A stretch of 40,000 bases of DNA from Clostridium neonatale (GTDB lineage Bacteria; Bacillota; Clostridia; Clostridiales; Clostridiaceae), in NCBI RefSeq assembly GCF_001458595.1, contig NZ_LN890328.1, positions 2,244,831-2,284,830 of the forward strand. Reading direction: 5' to 3'. The notes beneath the pieces were generated by a model. It had not been told where the DNA came from. It made no database searches and was given only the letters and a program-made list of their open reading frames with translations. Below are positions 813-38,511 of this stretch, one piece after another. Both the position numbers and the translations under genes were made by a program. The stretch's first letter is position 1. Every line of letters begins with the position of its first letter.

Positions 813-2816
813 TTATCTCTTTTTAGCTATTGGCCCTATTTGCTCTTTTTTAACTTTTGCAACTTCAATTTGTGCATCAATTACTTTTGCTTGAAGTTCA
901 AAATATTTACTTTCATAATGCTTTGACTCTTCATGCATTTTTTGATTTTCCTTTGATATCTTTTCCATCTCAATTTCTATAGAATTGATTTTAGTTCTTT
1001 TTTCATCTAATTCTTCTTTAAGATTTTTTAATTGAGCTTCTTTTGTATCAATTGTATTTGATAGTCTTAAGAATATATCTTCTTTATCGCTCATTTCTTT
1101 TTCATATCTTGTTATTGCACGTTCTTTACTTGCAAGCTCCTCTTTTAATCTTCTAAAATCATATTCCTTAGTTTTTATTTCTTCTTCAATTTGAACTAAA
1201 CTATTATTCTTTTCTTCAAGCTCAGTCTCTAATCGTAATATTTCATTATCTTTGGCTTTTACTTTATCATTTAATTCTTGAGTTATTTTTTCATTTTCTC
1301 TCAAAGAATCATTTAATTCTGTTTTTAAATTAGAATTACTATTTTTAGTAAGTTCTAATTCTTCTTGAAGAACTTCAATATCTCTATCACTTTTTTCTAT
1401 TTCTTTTGATAACTCATCGTTTGTATCTCTCATATTATCAAGCTCAATATTTAAAGTATTCTTATCATCTTCTAATTTAGATATTTCTTCTTTTAATTCT
1501 TCAGTAATTAATAAAGTTTCTTCCAACTTATTATTTAATTCATTTTTCTCATTATTTAATTTTTGTATTAAACTTTCAAGTTCAATTTTCTCTTCATTGG
1601 CTTTATTTAATTTACCGTTTACTTCATTATTTATATTTTTTTCATTTTCTAATTGCTTCTTATAATCTAAAAGCTCATTATCGCACTCATTAAATAATTC
1701 ATTTAGTTCATCTATTTTCTCATTTAAATCAGATATTTCAACCTTATTATTTTCTAATTTTTCTATTAGTTTTGCTGCCTTTTCTTTTTCTGATTTCAAA
1801 TCATTATTTAAATTGCTTTCTGTAATTTTTAATTGATCAATTTCTTTAGATAATTTATTGTTTAATTCCTTTTCTGAATCAAGCATTTTTATTGTTTCAA
1901 TTTTTTCATTTATTTCTGCTTTTATATTATTATTAGCTTGTGTAAGCTTATTTGAAGTTTCCGCATGTAATCCTTTAATATGATCTAAATTCTTGTTACA
2001 TTCTTCGAAATCTTTAGATAATTTTTCTTTAGAAATAATTTCTTCTTCCAAAGTCACTTTCAATTTTTCTAAAGAATTTACAGCTTCTTCTTTTTCTGAA
2101 GTTAAATTTGTTAAACTATTAATTAAATTCTTTATTTTTTCATTAGCATTATTTAAATCATTAGTTAGCTTTTCTTCTTTTTCTTTATATCCATTTTTAA
2201 TATTTTCTTCTGATTCTTTATATTTATCAAATTCTTCTTTTACACTACTAAGCTCATTATTTAATGATTGATTAATATAGCTATGATTAGACTTAAGCTT
2301 TTCTATTTCTTCTAATAAATCTGCATTTGTATTTAGCGCTTGTTCTTTTTCAACAGTTGCTTCTGATAATTTTTTATCTAAATCTTCTATTTGTTTCTTT
2401 GCTGCTTCTAAATCATTTTCTAATGCAGTATAGTAAGATTCTTCATTCTTATATCTTTCTTTTAATTCCTTTTCCTTATTGGAAAATTCAATTTCTATAT
2501 CACTTTTTTCCTTTGAAAGTTGTTCAAAACTTTCTTTAAGTTTGTCTAATTTACTTTTTAATATTGAATTTTCTTCTGAAACATTTTTTTGATTTTTCTC
2601 AATGTTTTCTAATTCATACCCACATTCAAAAAGTTCATCTGTTATATTTACGGCTGCCAAAACTGTTGAATCAAGTAAACTTAATCCTGTTTTTTTATTT
2701 GCTATTTCTTTTATTTTATTATCTACAAAATTTGCAACTCCAAATAAATACTTTTCATCTTTATCCCCTTTTAGATTATAAGTCATCCCATTTATATCAA
2801 CCGATATTTTATACAT
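813..2816 (-). CDS. ZapA-domain protein fused to a ~590-aa coiled coil
   Basis: The ORF track gives 813..2825. I prefer ATG 2816, with GAGGTG 6 nt upstream; the GTG at 2825 lies inside that RBS. The N-terminus MYKISVDINGMTYNLKGD...STVLAAVNITDEL matches the ZapA pattern. The rest is E/K/L/N-rich heptad-like sequence. Confidence 0.75.
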   Translation of the reverse strand: MYKISVDINGMTYNLKGDKDEKYLFGVANFVDNKIKEIANKKTGLSLLDSTVLAAVNITDELFECGYELENIEKNQKNVSEENSILKSKLDKLKESFEQLSKEKSDIEIEFSNKEKELKERYKNEESYYTALENDLEAAKKQIEDLDKKLSEATVEKEQALNTNADLLEEIEKLKSNHSYINQSLNNELSSVKEEFDKYKESEENIKNGYKEKEEKLTNDLNNANEKIKNLINSLTNLTSEKEEAVNSLEKLKVTLEEEIISKEKLSKDFEECNKNLDHIKGLHAETSNKLTQANNNIKAEINEKIETIKMLDSEKELNNKLSKEIDQLKITESNLNNDLKSEKEKAAKLIEKLENNKVEISDLNEKIDELNELFNECDNELLDYKKQLENEKNINNEVNGKLNKANEEKIELESLIQKLNNEKNELNNKLEETLLITEELKEEISKLEDDKNTLNIELDNMRDTNDELSKEIEKSDRDIEVLQEELELTKNSNSNLKTELNDSLRENEKITQELNDKVKAKDNEILRLETELEEKNNSLVQIEEEIKTKEYDFRRLKEELASKERAITRYEKEMSDKEDIFLRLSNTIDTKEAQLKNLKEELDEKRTKINSIEIEMEKISKENQKMHEESKHYESKYFELQAKVIDAQIEVAKVKKEQIGPIAKKR

Positions 2817-3174
2817 CAATAACACCTCGTAAAATTCTTTATCACTTTTAATTATAGGACATATTTCCTAATAAGACAATTGCGTAAAGCCTGTCTATAA
2901 GTAGATTTTTCATATAAATTTATATTTTGCTTAAAATAATTACATTTATTTCCTTTATATTATATCTCAGTTTTATTAATATTCAAAATACTTTTTTAAA
3001 TTTCATTTTCTATGCTATACTTATTTTAATTATTTATATAAAAACTTTATTTTATTATTATTGAAGATAAGATATTTTTATATTGATTTAATATACCTTA
3101 TTGTAATAAAATATCTTAGTGTTATTGATTAATAATATATTCATTGGTTAATAATCTAAAATAAAGTTAATTGG

Positions 3175-7470: not shown

Positions 7471-7509
7471 AAAATCACTAGAAATTAATCATCTTTCTAG
7501 TGATTTTTT
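7471..7509. terminator. Bidirectional intrinsic terminator between convergent genes
   Basis: AAAATCACTAGAAA-(9 nt)-TTTCTAGTGATTTT, with A/T runs on both sides. Confidence 0.6.
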
Positions 7510-11298: not shown

Positions 11299-11885
11299 CT
11301 ATTTTATAGCTTTTTCTGCATAAGAGTTATCAACAATAGCGTTAAATGCTGGTTTTTGTGGAATTAAACTGCTGTCATATTCAATAATAATATCCATTAA
11401 TCTATTTAAATCTTCTTCTTTAATTACTGGATTATGAGCCAAAGCATCGATTTTCTTATAATTATCTATAACTGTAACTATTGTATCTTTATCAGTACCA
11501 GGGAAATAGTCAATTATTTTATCTGCTATTTCTTCACTTGAATGAGAAAAATACCATTGTTGGCCTTTATAAATAGCATTTGTGAATTTCTGTATTACTT
11601 CTGGATTTTCTTTCATATATGAATTTGTAGCAAAGAAACAAGTATATGGTATGACACCTGATTCTTCACCTACAGAAGCAAGTATATGACCTGTTCCTTC
11701 TTTTTCAAGAACTGAAGCTGTTGGCTCAAATAAAGCAACGTAATCTCCAGTACCACCTTTAAATGCTCCTGCAGTAGCTGCAAAATCTATATTTGTAACC
11801 ATATTTGCATCTGTCTTTGGAATGATTCCATTTTGCTTCATAGCATATTCTAGTGCCATAGCTGGAACTCCTGCAAGACTCTTCA
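11299..11885 (-). pseudogene. ABC substrate-binding protein (NMT1/SsuA-like), C-terminal ~195 aa only; 5' part missing
   Basis: The tail of track ORF 11299..12093, AGVPAMALEYAMKQNG...GDYVALFEPTAS...IQKFTNAIYKGQ, fits the C-terminal lobe of NMT1/SsuA-type binding proteins. The first ~73 codons (11886-12093) are unrelated hydrophobic sequence with no RBS. No signal or lipoprotein sequence is present. Confidence 0.6.
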
Positions 11886-11998
11886 AATACATATTAATTT
11901 TCCAATTGCTTGGAGATTTAAATCTAATATAAAAAATGACAGTATAATTAACACCACCAAATAAATATAACATTCCCCAACAAACTAATAATAAAAGT

Positions 11999-12030
11999 GT
12001 AGTTACTATATCAATATTGACAGTAACTAC
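11999..12030. repeat. 32-bp imperfect palindrome in the prophage end arm
   Basis: GTAGTTACT-ATATCAATATTGAC-AGTAACTAC, with perfect 9-bp arms and an inner TCAATATTGA palindrome. On the minus strand it is followed by a T-rich run, so it could act as a terminator or as a protein-binding site. Confidence 0.4.
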
Positions 12031-12130
12031 GCCAAAAAATCGGCTCAGTCCAAAATTGGATTGAGCTTTTTCTTCCTTACCAGTAGGTGTCATAAGAACT
12101 GTAATAAAAATGTCGCAAAAACTAATTTAA

Positions 12131-12472
12131 TTCTTGTTATCATCCTATTCCTCAACAGTTCTAGCTTTACAATGCCTTTTATTTTTTTGTAAAATATTTC
12201 TTGTTACACTTTTTGTTACACCCTAAACCCTCTCTATTCCTTGCCTTTATATATATATTATATATATTGTAATAATAATATATAAATATATATATATAAT
12301 AAGGGAGATACATATACATACCTATATAGTATTATATATAAAGATAAGCACGTGTAATTTCAACTCTTGTTACACCTAGTGGAATTATCTTTAAACCCTT
12401 GTAATATCGGGGCTTAGAGGTGCGCAAAAGGGTGAAAATTCTTGTTACATAGGGCTGAAATTCTTGTTACTA
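12131..12472 (+). repeat. IR-L: composite module with six TTCTTGTTACA-type boxes around a TA-repeat core
   Basis: Boxes lie at 12131, 12198, 12210, 12364, 12439 and 12461, all in the same orientation. The TA-rich core is ~12246-12329. The 22-mer TATTATATATAAAGATAAGCAC lies at 12330-12351. The module is the inverted counterpart of 38143-38511. Confidence 0.85.
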
Positions 12473-12506
12473 TATATAAAATAACTGTTTATTTTTATTA
12501 AATATT

Positions 12507-12515
12507 TGTTATAAT
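12507..12515 (+). promoter_or_regulatory. Extended -10 promoter (TGTTATAAT) reading rightward out of IR-L
   Basis: Exact TGnTATAAT with AT-rich upstream sequence. No ORF lies downstream. Confidence 0.4.
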
Positions 12516-12522
12516 ATAAATA

Positions 12523-12652
12523 AGAAAAGCCTAGTGCGGGAACACTAAGCTTCTCCTAGAACGTTTTTAGTTTTAGGGCTATTGAAATTCACATATATAA
12601 ATATGTTTTAATGAAAAAGCACTTATTCTTGGTTAGATGGGGTGCTTTTTTC
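12523..12652 (+). ncRNA. Candidate antisense RNA (putative type I antitoxin) convergent with the 55-aa ORF
   Basis: Predicted start is ~7 nt after the -10 element. The possible 3' end is the hairpin AAAAAGCAC...GTGCTTTTTT (12614-12651). It is non-coding and fully complementary to the 3' UTR and last codons of the minus-strand ORF. The ends are predictions only. Confidence 0.3.
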
Positions 12653-12790
12653 ATTTGTGTTTAATTCAAAATTAATCCATTTAATTAAACTCAAACTTAT
12701 TTTACAATTCTTACTTTTAGGGTTTAACGCCACAATAACAACTGTTATTATAGCAACTATACACACTAATAGAACTATACAAATCCACAT
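12623..12790 (-). CDS. Small membrane protein, 55 aa (candidate type I toxin)
   Basis: Absent from the ORF track because it is under 60 aa. Sequence: MWICIVLLVCIVAIITVVIVALNPKSKNCKISLSLIKWINFELNTNEKSTPSNQE. The SD AAGGGGGTGG lies 7 nt upstream. It has an N-terminal TM helix and a polar tail. Confidence 0.5.
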   Translation of the reverse strand: MWICIVLLVCIVAIITVVIVALNPKSKNCKISLSLIKWINFELNTNEKSTPSNQE

Positions 12791-12879
12791 TTCAATACCA
12801 CCCCCTTAGACTATTATTTTTAATAGCCCAAGGCGGAAAACGTACAACCACCGCCCCCATCTTTGCGGAATATAGTGTT

Positions 12880-12888
12880 ATTATATCA
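12880..12888 (-). promoter_or_regulatory. Extended -10 promoter (TGATATAAT) for the 55-aa ORF
   Basis: Exact TGnTATAAT preceded by an A tract, ~85 nt upstream of the ATG. The leader contains the alternative pairing segments GGCGG / CCGCC / GGUGG (the last is the SD). Confidence 0.45.
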
Positions 12889-12963
12889 TTATTTGTTTTT
12901 ATGTGGAATATTTTTCTTTTATACAATTTATGCTTTTTAAACAGACATAATATTAACCTACAA

Positions 12964-12999
12964 AAAAGGAGATAACTAAATTAATAGTTGTCTCCTTTT
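12964..12999 (-). terminator. Hairpin terminator (unit U8) downstream of the 44-aa ORF
   Basis: 15-bp arms AAAAGGAGA(T/C)AACTA with a 6-nt loop, followed by a T run on the minus strand. Homologous to the U5 hairpin. Confidence 0.5.
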
Positions 13000-13075
13000 A
13001 GGTAAAATATGAATAAATATATAAAAAAAATGTTCCACCAAAATACATATCGAAATATTTTTAAATCACTTTAGC

Positions 13076-13210
13076 TTATATTAGTTCTTTTTTTACATAC
13101 TCTATTATAGTATCTTCTTCACCTTTAAATACATCTGCTAACTTTAATATAATCTCTTGATCTTCTATATCCATATCTTTTATTATCTCATACAATTTAT
13201 TATTGCACAT
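13076..13210 (-). CDS. Small acidic protein, 44 aa, unknown function
   Basis: My translation is MCNNKLYEIIKDMDIEDQEILLKLADVFKGEEDTIIEYVKKELI. The RBS is weak (GTGGGG). TATAAT lies ~25 nt upstream. Confidence 0.35.
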   Translation of the reverse strand: MCNNKLYEIIKDMDIEDQEIILKLADVFKGEEDTIIEYVKKELI

Positions 13211-13248
13211 AACTATACCCCACTGCTATTATATAAGCTTATATAAAG

Positions 13249-13281
13249 AGCTAGAAAAAGACTCTTTGTCTATCTCTAGCT
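13249..13281 (-). terminator. Hairpin terminator (unit U7)
   Basis: AGCTAGA...TCTAGCT outer stem with an inner GAC/GTC stem. Followed by CTTTATAT on the minus strand. Confidence 0.35.
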
Positions 13282-13429
13282 TTTTATGGTTTTTTTAACC
13301 ATAATTTAATACTCTTTTATAGTCATAATTGAATTCTTTTTTATTATAATTTACTTTTATATTTTTTATGTTAAATTTATGTTATATTTATATTAATTAT
13401 TTGTAAATATTTTATATTTTAAAACCAAA

Positions 13430-13509
13430 AGATAAAACAAAAGAGATAGCTTAAAAGGGGTTGGAAGCTATCTCTTTCTAAGTATTCTGGGCAAAAATAT
13501 TGTCTTTAC
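13430..13509 (-). ncRNA. Candidate small RNA unit U6
   Basis: Promoter TTGAAA (13545-13540), 18-nt spacer, TATAAT (13521-13516). About 80 nt without an RBS-led ORF. Perfect 12-bp hairpin AAGAGATAGCTT/AAGCTATCTCTT followed by TTTGTTTTAT. Confidence 0.35.
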
Positions 13510-13589
13510 ATACATATTATACTATAATTCTCCCAAACTTTTCAATATTTTATATCATATTTTTCAATACATTACATATTTTAATGTCA

Positions 13590-13667
13590 AGCAAAAAGAG
13601 ACAACTAAATTCATAGTTATCTCTTTTTTGATTATGTCATAAATATAAAATAATGAGTACCCCACTC
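13590..13667 (-). ncRNA. Candidate small RNA unit U5
   Basis: Extended -10 TGCTAAAAT (13682-13674). About 78 nt. Hairpin AAAGAGATAACTA/TAGTTGTCTCTTT followed by a T run. Confidence 0.3.
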
Positions 13668-13715
13668 AATTGTATTTTAGCATATTTTTAAATAACTTTA
13701 AACTCTAATTTATTT

Positions 13716-13793
13716 CATAGAAAAGAGATGGTCAAAGGAGCTATCTTTAAACCATCTCTTTAGGGAATTTTTGAACTAATTTGCATCTATTTC
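13716..13793 (-). ncRNA. Candidate small RNA unit U4
   Basis: TGATAATAT -10-like element (13808-13800). 11-bp hairpin AAAGAGATGGT/ACCATCTCTTT whose loop contains GCUCCUUUG (anti-SD-like), followed by a T run. Confidence 0.3.
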
Positions 13794-13841
13794 GTATCCA
13801 TATTATCATATTTTTTAACACTTTTCTATATTTTTCTACTC

Positions 13842-13904
13842 AAAAAAAGAAAGCCTATCTATAAAGGAGAGAAGTGTGGCTTTCTTTCTACTATTTGGAG
13901 TTAC
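13842..13904 (-). ncRNA. Candidate small RNA unit U3
   Basis: Extended -10 TGATAAAAT (13919-13911). 10-bp hairpin AAAGAAAGCC/GGCTTTCTTT whose loop contains UCUCUCCUUUA (anti-SD-like), followed by T7. Confidence 0.3.
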
Positions 13905-13929
13905 ATTTACATTTTATCATATTTTTACA

Positions 13930-14020
13930 TAAAAATAAAAGCCGATTAAAGAAATTAATCTCCAACCAGCTTTTACTATTTAATAGAATATGCAATCTTA
14001 GATCTGGGGATCACATTTTC
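13930..14020 (-). ncRNA. Candidate small RNA unit U2
   Basis: Promoter TTGAAA (14056-14051), 18-nt spacer, TGATATAAT (14035-14027). About 90 nt. Wobble-containing 12-bp hairpin AGCUGGUUGGAG/CUUUAAUCGGCU followed by UUUUAUUUUU. Confidence 0.35.
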
Positions 14021-14091
14021 AAAAATATTATATCATATGTTTTTTTAGCTTTTCAATTATTTTAAAGTATATTTTTTCTAAAAATCTATAT

Positions 14092-14171
14092 AATAAAAGT
14101 CAGCTAAAGAATTTAGTCTCTAACCGGCTTTTATTGTTTTCTATTTTATAGATATATGAATTTTTAAGTGT
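14092..14171 (-). ncRNA. Candidate small RNA unit U1
   Basis: CGATATAAT -10 element (14186-14178). About 80 nt. Its hairpin is homologous to that of U2 (AAAAGCCGGTTAGAGACTAAATTCTTTAGCTGACTTTT), followed by a T-rich run. Confidence 0.3.
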
Positions 14172-14234
14172 ATTGCTATTATATCGTATTTTTTTACATA
14201 ATAAAATAGTTTTTTTTATATTATTTAGCAAGTT

Positions 14235-14903
14235 CTATCTTATAGCATAGAACCAACTACCTAAAGTTTTCTGTAGCTCTTTACACTTTTCTATAGGCAA
14301 TACCTGCGTTTCTATCCATATACCTTTAGAATCTCCCTTTACATAACACCTTACACCTTTGAAATAATATAATACATATTCTAAGTCTACTCCTACAAAG
14401 CTACCATCACCACGATAGCCATTAGGCAAGTACGTAGTAACTATATAGCCTGTTGCTGTTTCTTCATTTTCCTTTAAAGCTTTAAAATCTGCTAGTGGAA
14501 AGTTAGCCCCTGGGCATTCTGTTGCTAATAATTCCTTGTGTCCATAAATAGGTAAGTTTCCATATTTACCTATTAAATATTTTATTAAATCTATTCCAGC
14601 ATTATATTCTGCTGTAGGCATTGTTTCTTTCATATAATTACCCTCAAAACAAATACCTAGTGTATTTGTATTACTACCTTGACAATGAGCTCCTATAGCT
14701 CCGTCTGGTCTACCTTTATAAATTGAGCCATCTTTTCTTATAAAATAATGATATCCTATTCCAGACCATCCATTATTTAAATGCCAAGAATGAATATCTT
14801 GTACAGTGCATTTACTTGCTTCTGCATGGTGCAATACTAATTTATTAGGTTTATTTCCATAACTTAATGATTTAAACTTTAATCCTACATCTATAATATT
14901 CAT
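14235..14903 (-). CDS. Endolysin: N-acetylmuramoyl-L-alanine amidase (Amidase_2/PGRP fold) with ~70-aa C-terminal domain
   Basis: LVLHHAEAS...IHSWHLNNGWSGIGYHYFIRKDGSIYKGRP...GAHC...GHKEL..TECPG are classic Amidase_2 zinc and catalytic motifs. GGAGG RBS. Confidence 0.9.
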   Translation of the reverse strand: MNIIDVGLKFKSLSYGNKPNKLVLHHAEASKCTVQDIHSWHLNNGWSGIGYHYFIRKDGSIYKGRPDGAIGAHCQGSNTNTLGICFEGNYMKETMPTAEYNAGIDLIKYLIGKYGNLPIYGHKELLATECPGANFPLADFKALKENEETATGYIVTTYLPNGYRGDGSFVGVDLEYVLYYFKGVRCYVKGDSKGIWIETQVLPIEKCKELQKTLGSWFYAIR

Positions 14904-14957: not shown

Positions 14958-15236
14958 TTATTCATCTTTAACTAATTGCTTTGCAGTTTGATTAACTCCA
15001 ACAGCTACACCCCAACATAAGATTCCTTGTAAAATTGCATTGGCTAAATTATTTACATTTAAACCACTATTAATTGAGTTCAAAAGTATAGAAAATACTA
15101 TACAAAATACCATTAAAATCATGGTAATATATTTATCCTTTATGCTTTCTATTTTCTTTAAAAATATTCCTAATACATATGTGGCAACAATTAGTATAAT
15201 AAGATTTTCTGGTATAAATTTTAGTAAGTTTTCCAT
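14958..15236 (-). CDS. Putative holin
   Basis: 92 aa with 3 predicted TM helices and a charged C-terminus. It lies directly upstream of the endolysin. Confidence 0.7.
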   Translation of the reverse strand: MENLLKFIPENLIILIVATYVLGIFLKKIESIKDKYITMILMVFCIVFSILLNSINSGLNVNNLANAILQGILCWGVAVGVNQTAKQLVKDE

Positions 15237-37323: not shown

Positions 37324-37410
37324 ATTATATAATACTTTTTCCACTAAAACGTGATTAAAAAGTGTACAAAAAGTGTTGTAAAAGTGGTATAAACGCGGTC
37401 AAAAAGTGTT
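37324..37410 (-). promoter_or_regulatory. Candidate late promoter: 11-bp-phased CAC(T/G)TTTT repeats ending at the -35 position of a TATAAT
   Basis: On the minus strand the CAC starts lie at 37408, 37386, 37375, 37364 and 37353, giving spacings of 22, 11, 11 and 11 nt. A degenerate copy lies in between. TATAAT is at 37329-37324. Confidence 0.5.
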
Positions 37411-37876
37411 ATGGATATATTAACTCGCTTAAATAATTAATCACACCAGTCCTTATCTTCTTGCAATAATCTTTATCAAATCCTAGCTCTTGACCAATCT
37501 CTATCCATGATTTTTTATTTCTACCACTAAGATATCTTAATTTAACAAGTTTATATTCATTTTCTGATAATTGCTGCAAAGATGATTGTATTTTTATTTT
37601 TAAATCTGAATAATATTTTTTCTTAGCTTTTAAAATACAAATTTGTTCCTGAATATATTCCTCTCGTCTTATAACTTCATCTTCCACACTTGATGTAATT
37701 TTATGTGTTGGACTTGATTTTTCCTCAAATGATATAGCTCTAACTGTTATATCATTTTCTAAATTTTCAATATCTATTTCTATATTTTTAATTTTGGTAT
37801 CTAAACTATTGTAATTATAAAGTGAAGATTCTGTTTTCTTAAACTTATTTTCTTTCATATTCATAACCAAACCCAT
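37409..37876 (-). CDS. RinA/ArpU-type late transcriptional activator (sigma-70 region 4-like HTH)
   Basis: SSLYNYNSLDTKIKNIEIDIENL... and the C-terminal LSENEYKLVKLRYLSGRNKKSWIEIGQELGFDKDYCKKIRTGVINYL fit the RinA/ArpU pattern. The true start may be ATG 37864. Confidence 0.7.
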   Translation of the reverse strand: MGLVMNMKENKFKKTESSLYNYNSLDTKIKNIEIDIENLENDITVRAISFEEKSSPTHKITSSVEDEVIRREEYIQEQICILKAKKKYYSDLKIKIQSSLQQLSENEYKLVKLRYLSGRNKKSWIEIGQELGFDKDYCKKIRTGVINYLSELIYP

Positions 37877-38130: not shown

Positions 38131-38142
38131 CAAAATCACCTC

Positions 38143-38511
38143 ACGTAACAAGAATTTAAGGCTCATGTAACAAGAATTTTTAGTCATTATTATGCCTTAA
38201 ACCCTCACTATTTCTAAGGTTACATAGATTTCTACATCTGTAACAAGATTTAAAATTGTATGTGCTTATCTTTATATATAATATATAGTATCTATCTATG
38301 TATATATATTTCTCTTTATATATATATATATATATTTATTATTATTATTACATATATATATAATATATAAGGGAACATAGAAACGGTGAGGGTTTCGGCT
38401 GTAACAAAAAGTGTAACAAGAATTTTTTCCAATTTTTTAAAATTGCGTTCTATCCTTTACACCTTGAGCCTTTGCACTGTCATAAAAATTGTAATAATTC
38501 TGTAATAAGAA
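38143..38511 (-). repeat. IR-R: inverted counterpart of IR-L (six boxes plus TA-repeat core)
   Basis: GTAACAAGAA-type boxes on the plus strand lie at 38143-38154, 38165-38176, 38238-38249, 38399-38410, 38411-38422 and 38500-38511. The TA-rich core is ~38284-38369 and the 22-mer is at 38262-38283. The module fills the whole intergenic gap. Confidence 0.85.

Follow-up and report, generated by a model that had tools for sequence, protein, structure and literature searches.

A tandem array of promoter-terminator units without open reading frames at the end of a Clostridium neonatale prophage: candidate cassettes for short RNAs

What can a series of promoters and terminators that enclose no gene be for? 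This question is raised by a stretch of DNA from Clostridium neonatale, an infant-gut species linked to necrotizing enterocolitis (contig NZ_LN890328.1, positions 2,244,831 to 2,284,830), which we call the window: it is 40 kb long with ~28% G+C, and all coordinates given below are positions within it. On its minus strand, behind the endolysin gene of a prophage, promoter-like motifs and terminator hairpins alternate in an array of closely spaced units. The original prediction for this locus counted about eight units in a range free of open reading frames (ORFs), and proposed that they form a battery of small RNAs (sRNAs). We found that the density of promoters and terminators is real: the units are autonomous and modular in related prophages, and are not random spacer. 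Six of them are complete, whereas U7 lacks the motif promoter, and U8 has a degenerate promoter and represents the 3' end of a gene for a 44-aa protein. This gene (13076-13210) lies inside the range that had been held to be free of ORFs.

The window carries a C. neonatale-type temperate prophage, which occupies ~12067 to past 40000 and is transcribed from the minus strand. Its late genes include terS (GP3_package), terL, tail and baseplate genes, XhlA, a holin and an Amidase_2 endolysin. An endolysin of identical sequence is present on many contigs, from infant-gut metagenomes and from NCBI assemblies, and its homologues carry the names C. neonatale or C. carnis. Host genes lie below ~12067, and on other contigs (L001, L004, L005, L007 and L047; L-numbers denote loci of related prophages) the phage end adjoins a large serine recombinase and a lysogeny module. 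The region is therefore phage DNA that extends from the lysis cassette to the attachment site, and the array sits between the endolysin and the prophage end (junction near 12067), just as predicted. This is the accessory, or moron, region of the prophage, a moron in the sense of Juhala and Hendrix being a gene with its own promoter and terminator, inserted between two genes that adjoin each other in related phages.

On the minus strand, the six complete units are found from the endolysin stop down to ~13430 (Table 1). Each begins with a 16-nt motif, AAAAATAYGMTAWAAT, which has the features of a -16/extended -10 promoter of the sigma-A type; a hairpin with a T-run stands 23-70 nt behind it. The five -10 elements originally quoted are all on the minus strand, where they end together with the motifs of U1 to U5, and we identified a sixth, TGATATAAA, ending at 13549. 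Two TTGAAA hexamers at 18-nt spacing were also located as described, and give TTGAAA-18-TATAAT promoters at 14056-14027 and 13545-13516 with 11 of 12 matches each. The motifs have TG at -15/-14 and a TAnnnT hexamer and, as detailed below, are constrained at these positions, and are predicted to be active promoters. Similarly, the hairpins show the stable stem-loop followed by a T-run that defines intrinsic terminators, and are predicted to end transcription. No ORF led by a ribosome-binding site is present inside U1 to U6, and the longest ORF in any promoter-terminator unit has at most 16 codons.

This arrangement is clearly non-random. A longer shared motif, AAAAATATGATATAAT, occurs with at most two mismatches six times on the minus strand within 13549-14193, compared to a single minus-strand copy (at 37324) in the remaining 39 kb of the window. 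By custom criteria, requiring a strict TRTGnTAnnWT promoter at most 110 nt upstream of a terminator, all four minus-strand pairs of the 40-kb window fall inside the array, and a consensus scan of 4.5 kb gave seven terminator-like sites against 1.6 expected. The eight hairpins, including those of U7 and U8, have folding energies of -10.7 to -20.8 kcal/mol and all are followed by T-runs. The predicted unit RNAs are 66-111 nt long, and their folding compared with shuffles gives z scores of -3.4 to -5.7 for seven of the eight, the exception being U3 (z -1.9). When the plus strand is scored, seven of the eight hairpins also qualify as terminators, because each of them has an A tract in front and a T tract behind.

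Related hairpin families had been proposed, and two pairings are borne out: U1 and U2 are 79% identical over 48 nt, and U5 and U8 86% over 36 nt (71% over 112 nt). The proposed grouping of U4, U6 and U7 reduces to a common AGAGAT at the start of the stem. The U1/U2 and U5/U8 pairs indicate that units probably arose by tandem duplication.

If these elements work as their sequences suggest, each promoter would fire without a -35 element and could therefore be constitutive in lysogens, while the intrinsic terminator would end transcription 55-110 nt further on. The product would be a short RNA whose 5' part is variable, AU-rich and mostly unstructured, and whose terminator hairpin is conserved and ends in a U-tail. 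Related phages exchange the units as cassettes, with breakpoints at the promoter motif and at the terminators.

To see how the array behaves across phages, we collected related contigs via the endolysin, its homologues and the 44-aa protein, and compared them by Blast mapping and by a unit-by-unit scan. Mosaic versions of the array are present in many related prophages, which differ in tail type, lysin (Amidase_2, Amidase_3 or GH25), integrase (serine or tyrosine) and integration site. Units are retained, lost, swapped or duplicated, and whole units follow three unrelated lysin types: for example, a U1-type unit stands directly 3' of the GH25 lysin in L046. The position of U3 is taken by other cassettes in L026 and L027, and U5 is missing from L050 and L051, where one promoter region aligns to the promoter regions of both U5 and U6. 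U4 is the most widely conserved unit (15 loci). Altogether we distinguished at least ten hairpin families, each found in varied contexts, without an ORF, and with an extended -10 promoter at a distance that is specific to the family (23-72 nt). Hairpins of family 3 also serve as the ordinary terminator of the lysin gene in L035, L037 and L044. Homology breakpoints gather at promoter motifs (13905-13926, 13815-13831, 13666, 13574 and 14062) and at terminators (13593, 12999, 13434 and 13847). The units thus share with morons their own promoter and terminator and their presence or absence between syntenic phages, and the six of them are without the protein-coding gene that a classical moron contains.

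The array flanks an accessory-gene hotspot. In relatives, protein-coding cargo is inserted in a slot between the first unit and U3/U4: DUF5105 and DUF805 genes in L030 and L053, an AAA ATPase with an S8 peptidase in L040-L043 (~6008-9387 in L040), possibly a defence system, or a ParA/CbiA-like three-gene operon in L044-L052 (~1136-3095). Small ORFs are inserted between units in L037 and L046, and ORFs of 131 and 132 aa are also among the cargo. In L030, a promoter of the same type (CATATGATAAAAT), with a strong ribosome-binding site, heads the DUF5105-DUF805 genes, which indicates that this is a working moron promoter class of this phage group. Because such cargo sits between units rather than within them, the units cannot be regarded as gene cassettes that have been emptied. 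We also ruled out that they encode micro-ORFs, since none has a ribosome-binding site and the indels in the bodies, as aligned among relatives, are not multiples of three.

In two more distant Clostridium prophages, L013 (6738-7435) and L014 (7948-8283), whose lysins are 67-70% identical (70% in L013), we also observed ORF-less pairs of extended -10 promoter and terminator after the lysin gene. These have no sequence similarity to the array in the window, and hint that the design may be general in clostridial temperate phages.

We then asked which parts of the units are constrained. Nineteen divergent haplotypes were mapped onto the window and identity was measured against it; as these haplotypes are related and mosaic, the resulting values are not independent and are descriptive. 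Identity is 0.90 in the promoter motif, 0.93 in the hairpin stems and 0.86 in the T-runs, compared to 0.82 in the 5' transcript bodies, 0.83 in the loops, 0.83 in the spacers between units, and 0.97 in the 44-aa ORF. In U4 to U6, stems reach 0.89-0.98 and bodies 0.69-0.80 (U4: stem 0.98, loop 0.97, 5' body 0.80; U5: stem 0.94, body 0.76; U6: stem 0.89). The U6 loop, at 0.62, is the most variable element of the array, while U4 and U2 (0.96) are exceptions among the loops. The 44-aa ORF has six synonymous and six nonsynonymous changes over 22 and 110 sites, respectively, and a synonymous divergence of ~0.05-0.18 per site; since bodies, loops and spacers diverge to a similar extent, they appear to evolve near neutrality, with promoters and stems under constraint.

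Within the promoter, the pattern of variation is that expected of a functioning TRTGnTAnnAT element. Among 23 distinct alleles, there is no variation in the G of the TG, in the first, second and fifth positions of the hexamer, or at three sites of the A tract upstream; changes sit at the N of TGN and in the third and fourth positions of the hexamer, and position 6 is a T in 83%. The stems are in turn maintained by compensatory change: among 15 hairpin-forming variants of the group formed by U1, U2 and family 3, pairs 5-8, 11 and 12 alternate between GC, CG, AT and TA, indicating double changes between families.

Database searches link the units to no catalogued RNA family. The original prediction had called for a search of Rfam type: with the Rfam 15 covariance models no family reached the gathering score anywhere in the window, lowering the threshold to E values up to 10 for 12100-14400 gave sub-threshold chance matches only, and 11 viral loci gave nothing at the hairpin. 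By blastn we could not find any similar region in GenBank phages; a scan of viral contigs with the U4 hairpin was negative, and one with the U5 hairpin gave one contig. As an exact 18-mer, the hairpin apex GTAAGATTAATTTCTTAT recurs in 16 contigs of viral origin and in over 120 from metagenomes (L054-L189). In thirty-four of 137 matches the apex tops a terminator, and the lower 5' arm takes 21 different forms; a variant, GAGATTAATTTCTTT, is present in the U2 hairpin of the window, and a host terminator at 7472-7506 contains GATTAATTTCT. We do not consider this a specially conserved apex: given the constraint of forming a hairpin, which leaves ~12 free positions, and a collection of ~10^8 terminators by our rough estimate, the recurrence is probably within chance.

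How, then, should the array be explained? We tentatively favour the view that it is a set of autonomous, short prophage sRNA cassettes, whose RNAs are under selection and would act in trans as regulatory or decoy RNAs; it would then amount to the battery of sRNAs first suggested. Six intact promoters stand on the same strand within 650 nt, each paired with its own terminator, and the predicted products, once accumulated, would have the architecture of prophage sRNAs, namely a short transcript that comes from a moron site, ends in a terminator, and is conserved on its 3' side and variable on its 5' side. Promoters and stems conserved above the near-neutral level, fixed distances within families, and mobility of units between phages with different lysins fit sRNA genes and argue against simple decayed remnants, the alternative that had originally been offered. 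Several observations weigh against an sRNA function. Bodies and most loops change at about the rate of spacers or synonymous sites, no conserved seed of at least 8 nt is present in the bodies of U4 to U6, and the promoter has decayed with the terminator kept in U8 and in the U5 copy of L044-L048, which suggests that the terminator is the more indispensable part. Antisense targets searched in the window gave matches of 11-13 nt, equal in sense and antisense orientation, and when the 44 unit RNAs of all relatives were compared with phage and host DNA of related loci (~450 kb), hairpin self-matches and chance-level matches were all that appeared. The lack of a match to Rfam and the dependence among haplotypes point the same way. 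These observations are in part what would be expected if the terminators and promoters were themselves selected and the RNAs were by-products, a scenario that we regard as possible, if with some reserve. The units could then form a two-way barrier that shields the accessory genes near att, attP/integrase and the host DNA from the late/lysis operon with its heavy transcription, and vice versa, or a scaffold whose standard moron promoters serve as recombination linkers and expression sockets for changing cargo. Stems are indeed the best conserved non-coding class, terminators outlast promoters, most hairpins qualify as terminators in either direction, and family 3 includes plain lysin-gene terminators; likewise, the insertion of cargo and the location of breakpoints would suit a scaffold. 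However, one or two terminators would be enough for insulation, and six intact promoters would be costly if their RNA were useless; moreover, the promoter positions critical for activity are invariant over all 23 alleles, each hairpin family keeps a fixed short distance to its promoter across contexts, and cargo is placed between units and not within them. A further and unlikely variant is a promoter-delimited cassette library, in which the 16-nt motif is both promoter and recombination joint and the fast-changing 5' ends are functional and diversifying, the swapped RNAs acting for instance as decoys for host sRNAs or RNA-binding proteins, or in anti-defence or against competitors.

The more specific mechanisms suggested for the units fare less well. 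We consider it very unlikely that they form a battery of anti-Shine-Dalgarno (anti-SD) sRNAs resembling LhrC, RsaE/RoxS or csRNAs, in which C/U-rich loops repress translation. The loops UCUCCUUU and GCUCCUUU that had been pointed out as anti-SD in U3 and U4 are present in the window, CUCC, UCCC or CCCC motifs occur in its copies of U2, U3, U4 and U6, and the tandem multicopy organisation recalls LhrC1-5. But these loops are replaced in relatives: the CUCUCCUUU held by the big hairpin loop of U3 is swapped for CUCUUACAUAUGG in L028 and L035, the CC of the U4 loop becomes TG (UG in the RNA) in L035, L050 and L051, the U6 loop is the variable element noted above, and the C-rich hairpin of U2 is gone in L040. 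No conserved C/U-rich seed in an unpaired loop could be found, and we do not think that the units are conserved anti-SD repressors. Still less probable is a role as antitoxin or anti-addiction RNAs for type I toxins, whether encoded by the adjacent 55-aa gene described below or by co-resident prophages. There is indeed a type I toxin-like gene 170 nt downstream of U8, and antitoxins of type I toxin-antitoxin (TA) modules in Clostridioides difficile prophages can also act in trans (PMC7699646). Duplex energies of the units with the mRNAs of the toxin-like and 44-aa genes are at shuffle level, except that U4 reaches z -3.1 against the toxin mRNA when duplexes are computed without constraints (the other five units give z -1.8 to +0.75); we discount this value because the duplex appears, from its dot-bracket notation, to use the terminator arms and because most relatives have no toxin gene. 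There is no k-mer complementarity to the toxin mRNA, and none that exceeds the sense-strand control in the window or the ~450 kb of related loci; L021, L026, L027 and L044-L053 have the array but no toxin gene, and L028 has the toxin without U6. In addition, a candidate for the cognate RNA, convergent and on the plus strand, is already present at 12507-12655. Neither extended complementarity nor co-occurrence, as expected of type I antitoxins, is thus observed. Finally, it is extremely unlikely that the units are RNA anti-CRISPRs, i.e. solitary mimics of the host repeat of clustered regularly interspaced short palindromic repeats (CRISPR). The idea draws on a positional analogy only, that with the CRISPR arrays of C. 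difficile prophages (PMC7699646), and on the presence of a type I-B system in the host species (PMC9465065). The test compared the array with the known I-B repeat of C. neonatale, GATTAAGATTAACATGAGATGTATTTAAAT (PMC9465065, Table S5), and not with all listed repeat types; the best ungapped match is 20 of 30 positions, in AT-rich spacer, against 21 of 30 in the rest of the window, and no mimicry of this repeat is seen.

Some comparisons help to place the array among known phage elements. In enterohaemorrhagic Escherichia coli, the moron sites of prophages harbour anti-sRNAs (AgvB, AsxR; EcOnc01-03), 51-60 nt in length, whose 3' region is conserved and whose 5' end varies (Tree et al. 2014, PMC4104026). 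Like these, the units of the array are ORF-less, have a predicted transcription of their own and a Rho-independent terminator, occupy moron sites of temperate phages, exist as related but non-identical copies in several prophages, and combine conserved 3' with variable 5' parts. Unlike them, they are six co-directional units rather than convergent pairs downstream of PR' in Gram-negative lambdoid phages; there is no sequence similarity between the two, and Hfq binding and targets are experimental for the E. coli RNAs, whereas the array is known from its sequence. With classical morons the units share a promoter of their own (of a type shared with coding morons), an intrinsic terminator, presence/absence polymorphism and a place beside the lysis genes, but the protein-coding region that defines a moron is absent from six consecutive units. 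Listeria LhrC1-5, streptococcal csRNAs and RsaE/RoxS are tandem multicopy anti-SD sRNAs with a conserved C-rich seed, and are members of chromosomal regulons. The array resembles them in having tandem, paralogous, sRNA-sized units with their own promoter and terminator and, in the window copies, C/U-rich motifs; it differs in that its C-rich seed is not conserved and in that its units are phage cassettes. The PR'-tR' leader of lambda (6S RNA) and its derivative in Stx phages lie upstream of the late genes and are read through by the Q antiterminator. In these leaders, lysogens produce a short non-coding RNA from a constitutive phage promoter that has an intrinsic terminator close behind it, as predicted for the array, which is instead located downstream of the lysis genes, comprises six units and has no evident link to a Q-like protein. 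In clostridia, the ends of C. difficile prophages carry type I TA modules and CRISPR arrays (PMC7699646). The array shares with these the setting at a prophage end beside a small hydrophobic toxin-like gene and the (here predicted) sigma-A-driven short RNAs, yet its units are not antisense to the toxin genes found and do not resemble the CRISPR repeat. The array is therefore best filed under ORF-less, sRNA-type morons of temperate phages, in a tandem and cassette-shuffled clostridial form.

Table 1. Array units and adjoining prophage genes in the window, with predicted RNAs and folding z scores
Feature	Positions	Strand	Promoter elements	Terminator hairpin	Predicted RNA	Fold z	Remarks
U1	14090..14193	-	motif AAAAATACGATATAAT 14193-14178	14131-14096 + T-run	~82 nt, start near 14171	-5.1	no ORF
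U2	13929..14056	-	-35 TTGAAA 14056-14051; motif 14042-14027	13976-13935 + T-run	~92 nt	-5.0	11/12 promoter with TG; scan terminator 13977-13934
U3	13839..13926	-	motif 13926-13911	13887-13846 + T-run	~66 nt	-1.9	
U4	13718..13815	-	motif 13815-13800	13759-13724 (loop AUAGCUC) + T-run	~76 nt		
U5	13590..13689	-	motif 13689-13674	13625-13596 + T-run	~78 nt	-5.2	small 5' hairpin with GGGG loop
U6	13432..13564	-	motif 13564-13549 (TGATATAAA); second promoter TTGAAA 13545-13540, TATAAT 13521-13516	13478-13439 + T-run	78 or 111 nt	-4.7	
U7 and spacer	13236..13431	-		13281-13249		-5.7	AT-rich spacer, then hairpin
44-aa ORF	13076-13210	-	own TATAAT; GGGG ribosome-binding site				acidic product (MCNNKLYEIIKDMDIEDQ..., full MCNNKLYEIIKDMDIEDQEIILKLADVFKGEEDTIIEYVKKELI)
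U8	12958..13073	-	degenerate AAAAATATTTCGATATGT	12997-12966		-4.0	
Endolysin	14235-14903	-					Amidase_2; stop at 14235
Holin	14958-15236						prophage lysis gene

Downstream of the six complete units, a conserved AAATTATAATAAAAAAG at ~13355-13339 could be a weak promoter. The 44-aa ORF that follows, whose terminator is the U8 hairpin, encodes a protein without match in Pfam or PHROG, which is found in identical form at att-proximal prophage ends with Amidase_2, Amidase_3 and GH25 lysins.

Beyond U8 lies the toxin-like module (12515-12888, minus strand). Its 55-aa ORF (12623-12790) encodes a protein with a hydrophobic N-terminus and a charged tail, for which we found no match in Pfam or PHROG, and is equipped with a TGATATAAT promoter of its own (12888-12880), a strong ribosome-binding site and a 5' untranslated region that is structured. 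A convergent promoter on the plus strand, TGTTATAAT (12507-12515), leads to a bidirectional terminator (12616-12648), giving the candidate RNA mentioned above. This layout is that of the type I TA modules of C. difficile prophages (PMC7699646).

We also noticed an inverted repeat of ~290 nt, with copies at 12195-12475 (plus strand) and 38140-38430 (minus strand) that are ~78% identical over their core and consist of TTCTTGTTACA-type iterons around a (TA)n-rich centre; the 13-mer AAATTCTTGTTAC occurs seven times in the window compared to 0.29 expected. One copy is upstream of a small ORF, a 155-aa ORF (37409-37876) and terS/terL, the product of the 155-aa ORF having a C-terminus that looks regulator-like by eye and no Pfam match. 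The second copy, on the att side, separates the toxin-like module from the phage/host junction and is shared by L028 and L051. The late region as a whole and the array are thus enclosed by the two copies, which could be either a duplicated regulatory region or an origin/iteron element.

At the junction itself, the prophage splits a host gene for an NMT1-like ABC-transporter binding protein (11299-12093, minus strand). The Pfam match of this ORF begins at residue 71 and at profile position 129 of 252, hence the N-terminal half of the domain is absent, and the first ~nine codons of the ORF as annotated are supplied by phage DNA. Transcription of the ATPase and permease genes downstream may depend on the phage side.

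No sRNA literature on C. neonatale turned up in our literature searches. If expressed, the array would represent a compact set of at least six phage-borne small RNAs in common C. neonatale prophages, and its design, with a conserved promoter and terminator, a transcript body left to vary, a promoter motif at which cassettes are swapped, and defence-like and other cargo inserted between units, is unusual for a phage of Gram-positive bacteria. Should the units instead be insulators, the region would be an ordinary hotspot of accessory genes, fenced in by an elaborate series of terminators; should they form a cassette library, these phages would possess a modular RNA armoury at the place where those of C. 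difficile keep CRISPR arrays and type I TA modules. In each case, the array offers a clean system for the study of ORF-less morons, be they regulators, decoys or insulators.

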